A DNA stretch of 64,000 nucleotides from a phage. The notes below the pieces were generated by a model, which ran no database searches, was not told where the DNA came from, and worked only from the letters and a program-made list of their open reading frames with translations. The stretch lies in sequence record OZ346228.1. One strand, written 5' to 3'. A program made the position numbers and the translations under genes. Shown piece after piece: positions 59,835 through 63,477 of the stretch. Position 1 is the first letter of the stretch, and each line of letters opens with the position of its first letter.

Positions 59835-60766
59835 TGCATATAGTCCTCGTTGTGGAAATAGTAGTCCAGTATCTCACGACGCTCCTGCTCTAATAAGCAA
59901 TTCCACACATCTTCTGTATAGTTGCTACGAATAAATTTTACCATACCGTAAAACTCTTCGTCAACACGTTTAAAGATATCATCATCCCAAATCTTCCAAG
60001 CTTTACCCCTCATTACTGCCTTCCGTGCCAGATAGTATGGAGACTTGATCTTCAGCTGCAGATCATAAGGGTAGTAAGGCTTACGAATCATATACCCTTC
60101 ACCTCTTGTTTCTGCAGCTAATTCTTTTGCATAGCTGAACGGAATTTCACGCACAGTGTTAGGACGTTTTGCACCAAGGTATTTGGCAATCCCATCTAAA
60201 GCTGCTTCTGGTAGCATTATTCCAGAATCATTATATCTGCAACCTATCAAATATGCGCCATGGTCTTCTTGAACAATATGCGGATCTGAAGGGTGACAAA
60301 TTTCAAACATGAATGTCATGTTTTCATTGCCCATAACCTTCTTGATAAGATCTAAATTACCACATTGCTCTTGGATGGTTTCCTTTGCAAGGTTACAATA
60401 TGGAGAATCAAGAGACCCGGTTGTTGAGAACAATAGGTCACCTTTATGAGATGATACCACACCAAGGAATCCGTTCTTTTTCTCTACCGCAGTCACAAGC
60501 TTATTGTCAGGCAGGTTGGTGGAGTTTTCTCCCAAGTTAAACACTTTTGTGAAGGGCCATGCCACAACATTTCCTTCATTACCTACAACAATGCCTCGGC
60601 ACTCCAGTAAACGAGGGGACAAATGCCATAAATTGTTGTAAAATACTTTTCTAGCATATTTATAGATCTTTAACCCGAGATCTGGGTAATACCTACTGGT
60701 TACAAGACCTTTGTCAACTAGGTCGTCTGCATTAAAATACTTCATTATATGTTCCTCATTTGTCAT
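59831..60766 (-). CDS. RNA ligase, T4 Rnl1-like
   Basis: LECRGIVV, KVFNLGEN, motif I EKKNGFLGV, GDLLFSTTGSL parallel T4 RnlA LECRGIMF, KFFNLNEN, TKEDGSL, GDEILFKSKGSI (from memory); start may be ATG at 60745. Confidence 0.75.
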   Translation of the reverse strand: MTNEEHIMKYFNADDLVDKGLVTSRYYPDLGLKIYKYARKVFYNNLWHLSPRLLECRGIVVGNEGNVVAWPFTKVFNLGENSTNLPDNKLVTAVEKKNGFLGVVSSHKGDLLFSTTGSLDSPYCNLAKETIQEQCGNLDLIKKVMGNENMTFMFEICHPSDPHIVQEDHGAYLIGCRYNDSGIMLPEAALDGIAKYLGAKRPNTVREIPFSYAKELAAETRGEGYMIRKPYYPYDLQLKIKSPYYLARKAVMRGKAWKIWDDDIFKRVDEEFYGMVKFIRSNYTEDVWNCLLEQERREILDYYFHNEDYMQ

Positions 60767-60809
60767 TTTGTCAGTCTATCCTGCCACACAAATAACCTAG
60801 TGTCAACAC

Positions 60810-60838
60810 TTGAAATTAACAAAACAGTTAGGTATACT
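60810..60838 (+). promoter_or_regulatory. sigma70-like promoter in divergent region
   Basis: TTGAAA, 17-nt spacer, TATACT. Confidence 0.45.
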
Positions 60839-60866
60839 ACCGTTGAAATTAAAACGGAGGGTCGCT

Positions 60867-61277
60867 ATGTCTAAAATGCTATATATCGTGCGTGGTCTAC
60901 CAGGGTCTGGCAAATCAACACTGGCAAATGAGCTATCTTTAGAGGGTCTGTATCCACATTTTGAGAACGACATGTTCTGGTATGACGATGACGGCAATTA
61001 CAACTGGGATGCAAGTAAAGTAACACTCGCAGCAAAATGGTGCAAAGATAACGTAGAAGATATGATGCGTATGGGATACGACCGTATCGTGGTAAGTAAT
61101 ACGTTTACAAAAGAAAAACATGTGCAGGAATATGTTGACATGGCAATCACTCACGGGTATAGTTATACCGTGATCGTGGTTGAAAACCGCCACGGTAATA
61201 AAAGCATTCATGATGTTCCAGACAAGGTTGTGGATCGTATGGAACGCCAGCTTAAAAACTGCATTAAACTTAAATGA
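60867..61277 (+). CDS. P-loop polynucleotide kinase-like protein
   Basis: RBS ACGGAGG; Walker A VRGLPGSGKSTLA; divergent from RNA ligase. Confidence 0.6.
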   Translation: MSKMLYIVRGLPGSGKSTLANELSLEGLYPHFENDMFWYDDDGNYNWDASKVTLAAKWCKDNVEDMMRMGYDRIVVSNTFTKEKHVQEYVDMAITHGYSYTVIVVENRHGNKSIHDVPDKVVDRMERQLKNCIKLK

Positions 61278-61284
61278 GGAATGT

Positions 61285-61839
61285 ATGAAATACTTTGTAA
61301 CAAGCGACACACACTTTCTCCACCAGCGGGTCATGGAGTTTGATTCATGTCAAAAACACAGATCTCAGTATGATCACAATCTTGACAGTATGAATGCAGG
61401 AATCATCGCCGAGTGGAACTCTGTTGTGTCACCTGCAGACACTGTGTTCCACTTGGGAGATATTGCGTGCACTAATGATAAGAATATCAACAACTTACTT
61501 CCAGATATTCTAAATATGTTGAACGGACATATTATTCTTGTTCGTGGCAACCATGACACAAGGACGACTGTCAGAATTATGAAAGAGTTCGGTCATGAGG
61601 TTGTAGATTATTACGAGCTTCGCCACAACAAGAATTTGATCTGTATGAGCCATTACCAGTTTGCAAAGTGGAACAGAAAGCCTCACGGATCAGTCCAACT
61701 GTTCGGTCATGCTCACGGAACCACACAACAGTTGTTTGGCAGGCAGCTTGATGTCGGTTGGGATGTGTGGGGGAGACTCTTACCATTAGAAGAGGCATAC
61801 CGTATTGCAATGAGTTTTGATATTGACAGCAGGGAGTAA
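61285..61839 (+). CDS. calcineurin-like metallophosphoesterase
   Basis: RBS TGAGGA; motifs SDTHFLH, HLGDIA, VRGNHD. Confidence 0.7.
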   Translation: MKYFVTSDTHFLHQRVMEFDSCQKHRSQYDHNLDSMNAGIIAEWNSVVSPADTVFHLGDIACTNDKNINNLLPDILNMLNGHIILVRGNHDTRTTVRIMKEFGHEVVDYYELRHNKNLICMSHYQFAKWNRKPHGSVQLFGHAHGTTQQLFGRQLDVGWDVWGRLLPLEEAYRIAMSFDIDSRE

Positions 61840-61886
61840 TCCCTGCTATTTTAAAGAAAATTGCCACACAAGGAGAATCAGGAGAT

Positions 61887-62237
61887 ATGAAAGATGGGGA
61901 TAAGCTGCTATATCTTAAAGTCCCCCTTGAAATACTATCTATGTCAAAAGTTTTGAATGACACAACTGGGGAGGTTGTTGTTCTTGACTTGTATGACAAG
62001 ATCGTATACTGCTACCTGCACAACTGGTATAAGCTTGGAGGAAATTCACGCTTCACACCAAGCACAAGGAAAATTGCAGCAGATGTTGGGATAAAGAAAA
62101 CAAAAGCAGCAGCGTGCGTTAAAACTTTAGAATGTGCAGGAGTGGTTGAAACATCCACACAAGGGAGAGGTAAAAGATGCACATTTTCCAAAGTTTTGCC
62201 ACCAGAAGAAGTTATTCGGATGTCAACAACTGGTTAG
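61887..62237 (+). CDS. putative DNA-binding (HTH-like) protein
   Basis: RBS AAGGAG; STRKIAADVGIKKTKAAACVKTLECAGVV resembles an HTH; followed by palindrome array. Confidence 0.5.
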   Translation: MKDGDKLLYLKVPLEILSMSKVLNDTTGEVVVLDLYDKIVYCYLHNWYKLGGNSRFTPSTRKIAADVGIKKTKAAACVKTLECAGVVETSTQGRGKRCTFSKVLPPEEVIRMSTTG

Positions 62238-62311
62238 ACCAGTAAAAACTTAAATATCTGTACTATAAGGATTCGTATGTTTTATGTTCGCCATGGAACG
62301 GATACTATTAA

Positions 62312-62394
62312 CTGTCCGTGATACGGACACTACTGTCCGTCACGCGGACACATCTGCCCGTAATACGGACACTAACTGTCCGTGATACGGACAC
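62312..62394. repeat. Four tandem 19-bp palindromic sites, 21-22 bp period
   Basis: CTGTCCGTGATACGGACAC, CTGTCCGTCACGCGGACAC, CTGCCCGTAATACGGACAC, CTGTCCGTGATACGGACAC; followed by ~130 bp AT-rich DNA. Confidence 0.6.
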
Positions 62395-62528
62395 ATAAAG
62401 AATATAACTAAAATAACTAAATAATAAAAAATAAAAGATCTAGTACTTATGGTACTAAGTACATATACTTAACTTATGTAGAATATACTAGATCCTAAGT
62501 ACCATGTTTTAAATTTATTACTTACTAT

Positions 62529-62790
62529 GGGCAGTGTCGGCCCTTCATTGGCACTCGCCTACGAGGGGGCGAGATGCCGGGCCTCCTTGGCGCACACAAT
62601 AACAGAAGTTCATACATGCAGGTCTGTTAACATGTGTGGGAGCGAAGCGATAGCGCAGGCCAAAGGCCGAGCACTGATGTGGACCACCGACGAAAGCTTG
62701 CCAGCGCCGTAAGGAGTCGGTTGAGAGTCTCCCGCGCGAGCTTGGATGAAGTTTATGTGTGGAAACTGACAAGAAGGCCCCTAAATCGCT
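62529..62790. other. GC-rich structured non-coding element (candidate ncRNA)
   Basis: ~260 nt of sharply higher GC flanked by AT-rich DNA; hairpins GGCACTCGCC..GGCGAGATGCC and GGCC-AAA-GGCC; track ORFs here on both strands look spurious. Confidence 0.3.
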
Positions 62791-62898
62791 CCACAGCTAT
62801 ATAAACTATACCAGGTAATGCAATCGCACCAGTTTGATAGAAAAGCTCGTTACAAAGCGATACAGTGAGTTTTTCTATAACTTGAAGAGGAGGCAGCT

Positions 62899-63477
62899 AT
62901 GGGTTCACGCAAAGATGACCGTGAAAAGATTGCAAAACGTTATCAGAATGAAGAACAGATGGAGAAAACTTTCAAGTGGAAGCCAGGTTTCCAGCGTAAT
63001 CATTCTAACGCTCGTGATCGTAAGCATCCGGATAAGTGGCTAACACCGCCAAATGATGGCATGCAGGTTGGGGATGAGAAGGAGATGTCGCCTGGAAAAG
63101 ATGGCAACTACATTCGCACTAAGGACGCTGGTCCAAAGGATGACAGCTATCTTGTAGATAAGGTTCTTGATGGTATCAATGTAGATGTTGACACTGCACG
63201 AAACCTTTTTCTTGGGTGGTATCGCACAGGTTTTTTCGACATCAAGGCTATTCGTCGTGTTTGTGATATTAAAAAGTCTGCATATGATGACGACTCGTTA
63301 CATCGCACCCTGAGACAATATTCAGAAAGATATGGTCATCCGGTTATCACTCTTGACGATGTTAACGAAGTGATGTATCATGCAGAGGTTGTTGCAGGAA
63401 GATTCGGTGATGCATATCTTGATATCCTTTCTGCAAAGGATGAGGTAATGTTAAATAAGATTTACTATGAACGCTGA
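62899..63477 (+). CDS. hypothetical protein
   Basis: RBS GAGGAGG; 192 aa. Confidence 0.55.
   Translation: MGSRKDDREKIAKRYQNEEQMEKTFKWKPGFQRNHSNARDRKHPDKWLTPPNDGMQVGDEKEMSPGKDGNYIRTKDAGPKDDSYLVDKVLDGINVDVDTARNLFLGWYRTGFFDIKAIRRVCDIKKSAYDDDSLHRTLRQYSERYGHPVITLDDVNEVMYHAEVVAGRFGDAYLDILSAKDEVMLNKIYYER

Follow-up and report, generated by a model that had tools for sequence, protein, structure and literature searches.

A predicted iteron-type replication origin beside a small winged-helix gene in rV5-like Escherichia coli phages

The analysis was done on a stretch of 64,000 nucleotides of phage DNA (sequence record OZ346228.1; here called the window) and concerns a small gene at positions 61887-62237 together with the non-coding DNA that follows it. 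All 119 phage matches to 1.1 kb around this locus were Vequintavirus records, that is, rV5-like Escherichia coli myophages of ~137 kb, with 90-100% identity, and judged by these matches the analysed stretch is Vequintavirus DNA. In phage rV5 the counterpart of the small gene is open reading frame (ORF) 79, which is annotated as a 'putative transcriptional regulator' in the original GenBank records and is named 'replication initiation protein' in the RefSeq copies of rV5, FV3, FFH2 and V18. The gene is preceded by a sigma-70-type promoter, at a position equivalent to that of promoter 'P76' in the rV5 record. It is followed by four palindromic sites (iterons), a very AT-rich stretch and a GC-rich block (Table 1). 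In a few GenBank records the iteron repeats are flagged merely as 'repeat_region'.

Table 1. Features of the small gene and the adjoining intergenic region (positions in the window).
Feature	Position	Strand	Description
Sigma-70-type promoter	61823-61852	+	TTGACA-18-TATTTT; 10/12 matches, TG ahead of the second hexamer
rV5 ORF79, winged-helix protein gene, predicted initiator	61887-62237	+	116 amino acids (aa); basis: PHROG, 4RO3, model, codon bias
Iteron 1	62313-62329		TGTCCGTGATACGGACA, perfect palindrome arms
Iteron 2	62334-62350		TGTCCGTCACGCGGACA, 1 mismatch
Iteron 3	62355-62371		TGCCCGTAATACGGACA, 1 mismatch
Iteron 4	62377-62393		TGTCCGTGATACGGACA, perfect
AT-rich stretch, predicted DNA unwinding element	62395-62525		131 bp, 19-21% GC
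Two tandem 9-mers	62404-62421		ATAACTAAA; within the AT-rich stretch
Perfect 9-bp inverted repeat	62437-62445 / 62486-62494		GATCTAGTA/TACTAGATC; within the AT-rich stretch
GC-rich conserved non-coding block	62526-62800	+	52-61% GC in a genome of 42% GC; adjoins the AT-rich stretch
Hairpin	62550-62578		in the GC-rich block
Helix	62686-62691 / 62716-62721		6 bp; in the GC-rich block

A first, sequence-only reading had described a small helix-turn-helix-like gene with four tandem 19-bp palindromes, repeated every 21-22 bp, directly after it. The gene is present as an ORF of 116 aa and the four tandem sites were found, with start-to-start spacings of 21, 21 and 22 bp. The true palindrome, however, is 17 bp long with the consensus TGTCCGT-N3-ACGGACA, whereas the 19-bp CTGTCCGT..ACGGACAC is the repeated unit, the outermost bases of which are not symmetric. 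The array does lie downstream of the gene, but it starts 75 bp past the ORF79 stop codon, which is 426 nt from the start codon. When the window was scanned for the palindrome with up to two mismatches, 5 matches were obtained; 100 shuffles that preserved the dinucleotides had 0.12 matches on average and never more than 1. The Tandem Repeats Finder score of the array was 110. For whole-genome scans the window was combined with the remainder of the near-identical phage isim genome (loci L019 and L020), giving ~138 kb, and with up to one mismatch these four sites were the sole matches to the palindrome. The independent short-read Logan contigs L005, L009 and L021 stop inside or just past the array, and the GenBank record MG065672.1 begins exactly there. 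These ends are probably assembly breaks, caused by the tandem repeats or by low coverage of the AT-rich DNA.

The AT-rich stretch agrees with the ~130 bp that had been read from the sequence. The hairpin that had been ascribed to it exists as a perfect inverted repeat, which is invariant among the relatives, but as a fold it was no better than shuffles (z = -1.28). The only 100-bp window with less than 24% GC in the 64 kb lies here, and the stretch was the least stable duplex of the window when calculated at scales of 50, 100 and 130 bp. Across the whole genome it had the lowest 100-bp duplex stability with -102.2 kcal/mol, compared to a mean of -132.6 (standard deviation 5.9) and a next lowest value of -110.9. 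The stretch also holds two GATC sites and four GTAC-centred motifs (AGTACT, GGTACT, AGTACA and AGTACC; 62437-62505). A run of five AGTAC motifs was observed in a large AT-rich intergenic region of the unrelated E. coli myophage anhysbys (Phapecoctavirus; L011 340-580). This GTAC-type motif common to both phages may be a recognition motif of a protein or a primase.

Conservation was determined in 8 diverged sequences with ~10% protein divergence. Variable columns made up 8.1% of the iteron array and 9.1% of the AT-rich stretch, as compared to 14.8% of the ORF79 gene, 12.8% of the next gene (rV5 ORF77), 22.5% of the GC-rich block and 28% of the spacer that separates the gene from the array. Iterons and AT-rich DNA are thus constrained about like non-synonymous codon positions. 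Within the ORF79 gene the variable columns were distributed 8/10/34 over the three codon positions, showing that the ORF truly codes for a protein. For a metagenomic ortholog of only 70% protein identity, the spacer could not be aligned, but the first iteron (CTGTCCGTCACACGGACAG) and the 21-bp spacing were retained.

The 116-aa protein was then compared to known families. PHROG 12838 'replication initiation protein' is defined by this protein (E 5e-80), and weaker matches were obtained to the N-terminal parts of phrog_8102, phrog_428 and phrog_270, which are larger initiator families. The Pfam scores were 24.5 bits for HTH_36 (cut-off 25) and 27.4 for DUF6945 (cut-off 28), and PF13730 is listed for close orthologs in precomputed Pfam. 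With E up to 1, Pfam gave no match to Phage_rep_O or to RepA_N (PF06970). At the level of BLAST the protein was found in Vequintavirus only, and an exhaustive profile search yielded 15 proteins in all at E up to 0.001. The distant relatives are of the HTH_36, DUF6945 or DnaD_N type and match PHROGs named 'replication initiation', 'O-like' or 'DnaD-like loader'.

Structure prediction with AlphaFold2 and a 25-sequence alignment gave a model with a predicted local distance difference test (pLDDT) score of 77.7, whereas the single sequence led to an unusable model (pLDDT 39). The predicted fold is a winged helix whose wing is a basic beta-hairpin. The protein consists of this one domain and nothing further; a C-terminal domain for recruiting a helicase or loader is missing. 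Its closest solved relative is 4RO3 (hmmsearch E 2.5e-6; Foldseek E 1e-5, template modelling (TM) score 0.67). The next Foldseek matches were the staphylococcal RepA_N initiators 4PQL, 4PT7 and 5KBJ with TM 0.52-0.56, including a complex of Rep with iteron DNA. Generic winged-helix repressor domains (CodY, MarR and LexA) followed at weaker scores in the Pfam, PDB and Foldseek matches. By sequence and by model, the best-characterised relatives of the protein are the DNA-binding domains of replication initiators and not repressors.

Longer distant homologs carry C-terminal extensions, unlike the 116-aa protein. Some of these (P0009, P0016, P0017, P0019, P0024, P0026, P0027 and P0029-P0032) have acidic tails that end in PF or PY, e.g. 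...EDCDEAPF, ...YYDTGEPF and ...NDDMVLPF; the rV5-type protein has no such tail. The C-terminal tip of the bacterial single-stranded DNA-binding protein (SSB) reads ...DDDIPF, and by analogy this suggests that the acidic-tailed homologs recruit a replication partner that binds the SSB tail.

The palindrome is also found outside of the phage. Metagenome contigs were scanned for two adjacent GTCCG-N5-CGGACA palindromes and at least 120 loci were obtained (L026-L145), where by a rough estimate less than one is expected by chance. Among the matches listed, the arrays had 2-7 sites that were 20-23 bp apart, on contigs of 31-75% GC. From these sequences, TGTCCG-N5-CGGACA appears to be a widespread iteron class in environmental contigs. 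At ~22-25 of the loci listed, the array lies within an ORF of 165-560 aa, just 3' of the HTH_36 domain, mostly with 3-7 sites at 22-23 bp, and these ORFs match PHROGs named 'replication initiation protein' or 'O-like'. Here the arrays start ~300-520 nt into the ORF, and the following 80 bp are on average 11 GC points below the contig. Another class, with 76 loci among the matches listed, consists of palindrome pairs exactly 20 bp apart with different neighbours. In the marine low-GC contigs L041, L067, L096 and L132, the pair has a family A DNA polymerase gene on one side and, on the other, a 153-aa ORF followed by a small-terminase gene. An exact-pattern scan of the IMG/VR viral contigs found no array. 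Three bacterial-genome matches to the exact pattern were on unrelated contigs of metagenome-assembled genomes and were set aside as probably chance.

A comparable module was observed in phage 4MG of the sister genus Seunavirus (L010 2169-2640). It encodes a 105-aa distant homolog with 35% identity over 48 aa, which matches phrog_8102 'replication initiation protein' with E 6e-37. Beside this gene are two 18-bp direct repeats AGCCTAnnCTCAAATTGA, 23 bp apart; ~110 bp that are AT-rich and contain AGATCT palindromes come next, and transcription diverges here. This is probably the equivalent origin of the sister genus.

Three features that mark an iteron origin were found at the rV5-like locus: a phased array of at least three sites, adjoining DNA that is easily melted and an initiator gene in cis. 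With moderate confidence, we interpret the locus as an iteron-type replication origin of the rV5-like phage, whose initiator would have a DNA-binding domain only. Binding of the protein, unwinding of the DNA and initiation at this locus are what we infer from the sequence. The 116-aa winged-helix protein would be produced early from the host-type promoter, and its dimers would occupy the four 17-bp palindromes. Since the sites are two helical turns apart, the dimers would be placed on one face of the DNA and bend or wrap it like the O-some of phage lambda, and the strain would open the adjoining AT-rich stretch. The phage has its own replisome with a T7 gp4-like primase-helicase, a family A polymerase and a Pif1/Dda-like helicase, which would be loaded on the opened DNA. 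Because the initiator is without a C-terminal recruiting domain, this loading probably relies on the opened DNA as such, on transcription that reads through or on the neighbouring GC-rich structured element. No terminator-like site was found in 60600-63100. Transcription from the gene may therefore read through across the iterons and the AT-rich DNA and assist the opening. In phage lambda, read-through transcription aids the opening of the origin.

The layout looks like a lambda-type origin with an initiator gene that ends just short of the iterons. The lambda origin likewise has four dyad-symmetric sites of 17-18 bp, with arms of 6-7 bp around a centre of a few bp, that follow each other after about two helical turns (20, 24 and 23 bp). 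Its iterons begin at nt 348 of gene O, which is comparable to the distance between the initiator start codon and the array in the rV5-like phage. In both phages AT-rich DNA comes immediately after the sites and an inverted repeat after that, and the initiator gene is transcribed from an early promoter reading through the origin, as is predicted here. The lambda iterons are inside gene O, whereas the rV5-like gene ends before the array. The rV5-like system also differs in that its initiator has no detectable sequence similarity to O and no C-terminal domain, there is no P-like loader, and the phage supplies its own T7-type primase-helicase. Its AT-rich stretch is conserved in sequence and about three times as long as that of lambda (~40 bp).

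The closest solved relative, 4RO3, is the N-terminal domain of RepA of the Vibrio cholerae satellite PLE, a RepA_N-type initiator (Barth et al., PMC7145576). PLE RepA itself does not evidently resemble the RepA_N family in primary sequence, it shifts the PLE origin repeat in an electrophoretic mobility shift assay, and PLE replication requires the replisome of the helper phage ICP1, a lytic myophage, including its SF1B helicase (PMC7145576). The dimeric N-terminal domain of PLE RepA binds semi-palindromic iterons, and the protein itself is neither a helicase nor a primase. Like the PLE helper with its SF1B helicase, rV5 encodes a Pif1/RecD-like helicase (PMC3606486). PLE RepA has a C-terminal domain, which the rV5-type protein lacks; the two are only ~29% identical and their iteron sequences are unrelated. 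In the PLE case the initiator is that of a satellite, and here it is one of the phage's own. The RepA proteins of the staphylococcal plasmids pSK41 and pTZ2162 have the same winged-helix N-terminal fold, and their iterons are bound by dimers. These RepA_N proteins are from another host phylum and have C-terminal domains interacting with the host DnaD and primase, which are absent here. The origin of RepA_N plasmids is located within or next to the rep gene (PMC7145576).

The GC-rich block beyond the AT-rich stretch was analysed for its coding and folding potential. A protein gene, annotated in rV5 as 'ORF78', was rejected since the codon-position bias was absent (9/9/9) and indels of 1 bp and 18 bp occurred among the relatives. 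Nothing spoke for a decayed C-terminal half of an O-like gene; blastx against O-like ORFs matched only the rV5-like contig itself. The whole window had no match in Rfam at gathering scores, and when 62200-62950 was scanned by E-value, all matches were to unrelated families and at the level of chance. Within Vequintavirus, RNAalifold detected no covariation signal in the block (term +0.7), and its folding energy was ordinary (z -1.3 and -1.0). A structure with at least two stem-loops was visible solely in the comparison with homologs on ~13-kb circular E. coli 'plasmids', whose non-coding DNA is 84-89% identical to two patches of the block. Between the phage and the plasmid versions there are compensatory pair changes, 3 in the 6-bp helix and 2 in one hairpin, and the G-U pairs favour the + strand. 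The compensatory changes and the G-U pattern indicate that the element acts as a folded single strand, either RNA or single-stranded DNA. Candidate roles are those of a site for single-strand initiation or primosome loading, of a transcript or of a packaging signal.

The plasmids (L149, which is NZ_CP020521.1 with 13.7 kb; L150; L151; and L152, which is NZ_CP043822.1) look like satellites or mini-phages related to the rV5-like phages, judged by their gene content. One plasmid encodes a major capsid protein, and its baseplate, tail and tape-measure proteins have 38-54% identity to tail proteins of Vequintavirus; a record of 39.6 kb is a head-to-tail trimer of a 13.5-kb unit. The plasmids have their own iterons, the palindromic CGGAAATATTTACCG in six copies with the first three 23 bp apart, which differ from those of the phage. 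These are followed by AT-rich repeats, the shared GC-rich element, promoter-like sequences and the gene of an O-like HTH_36 initiator. On present sequences, the order of iterons, AT-rich DNA and GC-rich element is thus common to plasmid and phage. The same order of parts is found in oriV of RSF1010/R1162, where iterons and an AT-rich stretch are followed by the GC-rich, structured single-strand initiation (ssi) sites ssiA and ssiB; the likeness seen is one of layout. In RSF1010 the iterons are 20-bp direct repeats bound by RepC, and the ssi sites are used by the plasmid primase RepB'. More speculatively, and doubtful at present, the 660-bp intergenic region may be a composite hub. An iteron origin with a DNA-binding-only initiator would here be joined to a structured loading element for the replisome or the packaging machine, and the 13-kb satellites would have copied it without the iterons to hijack the helper machinery.

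Several observations weigh against a replication origin at the iterons. For both HTH_36 and DUF6945 the 116-aa protein narrowly misses the Pfam cut-off, hhalign did not detect similarity to lambda O (probability 0.1%), and winged-helix domains of this class occur in repressors too. The missing recruiting domain leaves the step from binding to replisome loading unexplained. The conservation of the AT-rich stretch, which is one of sequence beyond composition, hints at an extra or different function. Outside of the phage, the recognition helices of the proteins encoded beside the shared iteron had no visible likeness in partial alignments, and the palindrome pair also occurs in the polymerase and small-terminase context of the marine contigs. 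The GC skew was of no help in locating an origin. Its cumulative minimum, at ~60,800, falls on a point of divergent transcription (~60767-60809) and is ~1.5 kb upstream of the array, and such a minimum is inseparable from gene orientation and the direction of transcription. It corresponds to the skew change at 66675-66725 in rV5, where the origin had been sought by skew analysis alone and without success (PMC3606486). DnaA boxes were not found near the locus; three are present elsewhere in the window, distant and in a number as expected by chance.

The sequence-only reading had offered an operator as the alternative to an origin. In that case the small protein, cooperatively bound downstream of its own gene, would block or tune the read-through into rV5 ORF77-76 and the tRNA cluster, or govern a phage-type promoter that went unrecognised in the AT-rich DNA. 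The original GenBank name of the gene fits with this, as do the palindromic sites, which are suited to dimeric repressors, the CodY, LexA and MarR-type domains among the weaker matches and the position of the sites in the transcribed path with no terminator found before the next genes. The sequence conservation of the AT-rich DNA would also be expected of a promoter, and near the distant homologs L023 and L025 the palindromes are scattered 130-180 bp apart in a large regulatory region, which is more operator-like. However, the sites are downstream of the regulator's own gene and away from its promoter. A scan of 61853-63100 found no sigma-70-type promoter overlapping or following them, with phage-specific promoter types outside the scan, and the rV5 authors annotated no promoter at or after the sites. 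An operator also leaves unaccounted for the most meltable DNA of the genome beside the sites and the arrays inside initiator genes elsewhere. We regard it as unlikely and favour the layout of initiator, iterons and unwinding element, for which the initiator relatives of the protein, the single cluster, the least stable duplex, the arrays in O-like genes and the lack of an overlapping sigma-70 promoter speak. Initiators often regulate transcription too, and control of transcription is possibly a second role and not a true rival.

A packaging site is improbable, although Vequintaviruses package by the headful mechanism and have circularly permuted genomes, so that a pac site must exist and is unmapped (PMC8407724, PMC13211470). 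The array and the GC-rich element would then be this pac site, and the small protein would be comparable to the part of a small terminase subunit that binds DNA. Beside the large subunit, spanin genes are found in place of an annotated small terminase, and in some marine contigs the same palindrome pairs are just upstream of a small-terminase gene. In Pfam and PHROGs the small protein itself has no match to a terminase family, and the gene of the large subunit is ~4 kb downstream, beyond the tRNA and lysis (spanin) genes. The GC-rich element common to the phage and to satellite-like plasmids with rV5-like tail genes would be expected for a signal copied by a satellite; the plasmids, however, share this element only and have different iterons and their own O-like initiator, which fits with replicon-specific origins. 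The several contigs and the one GenBank record that end at the array could be taken as packaging ends, but assembly breaks are common at tandem repeats and in very AT-rich DNA.

The neighbourhood of the predicted origin was also inspected. Upstream of the small gene is a cluster of the RNA-repair type, encoding a Sir2 protein, an RNA ligase, a polynucleotide kinase and a phosphoesterase. Downstream, small ORFs come first, then the tRNA cluster, then the spanin genes and finally the gene of the large terminase. In the 64-kb window, no gene for a tRNA or tmRNA was found. In the database matches, 18 GenBank records MG0656xx named 'Campylobacter phage' (host C. jejuni) were up to 99.5% identical to the rV5-like E. 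coli phages across this region. These phage stocks were likely mislabelled or contaminated.

Iteron origins with a winged-helix initiator are a well-known kind, and an automated annotation had already guessed at a 'replication initiation protein'; this instance is new to the searchable literature. A literature search found no paper on rV5 satellites and none that links Vequintavirinae with iterons. Distinctive are the DNA-binding-only initiator, the origin just outside of the gene and the long, sequence-conserved AT-rich stretch with its adjoining structured element. Few E. coli phages are isolated more frequently than those of the rV5 type, and collections for typing, biocontrol and therapy make use of them. 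Once origin and initiator are defined, the control of their replication would become testable and there would be a handle for engineering, with origin plasmids that are amplified on infection and with replication-defective mutants. This would also explain the function of a gene that has gone by the names 'transcriptional regulator' and 'replication initiation protein' one after the other. The question is posed how a lambda-type origin works with an initiator that has no recruiting domain and with a T7-type replisome, and the same question applies to PLE RepA. In conclusion, the TGTCCG-N5-CGGACA class and the structured element shared with the plasmids are starting points for studies on phage origins and on the satellites of virulent phages.

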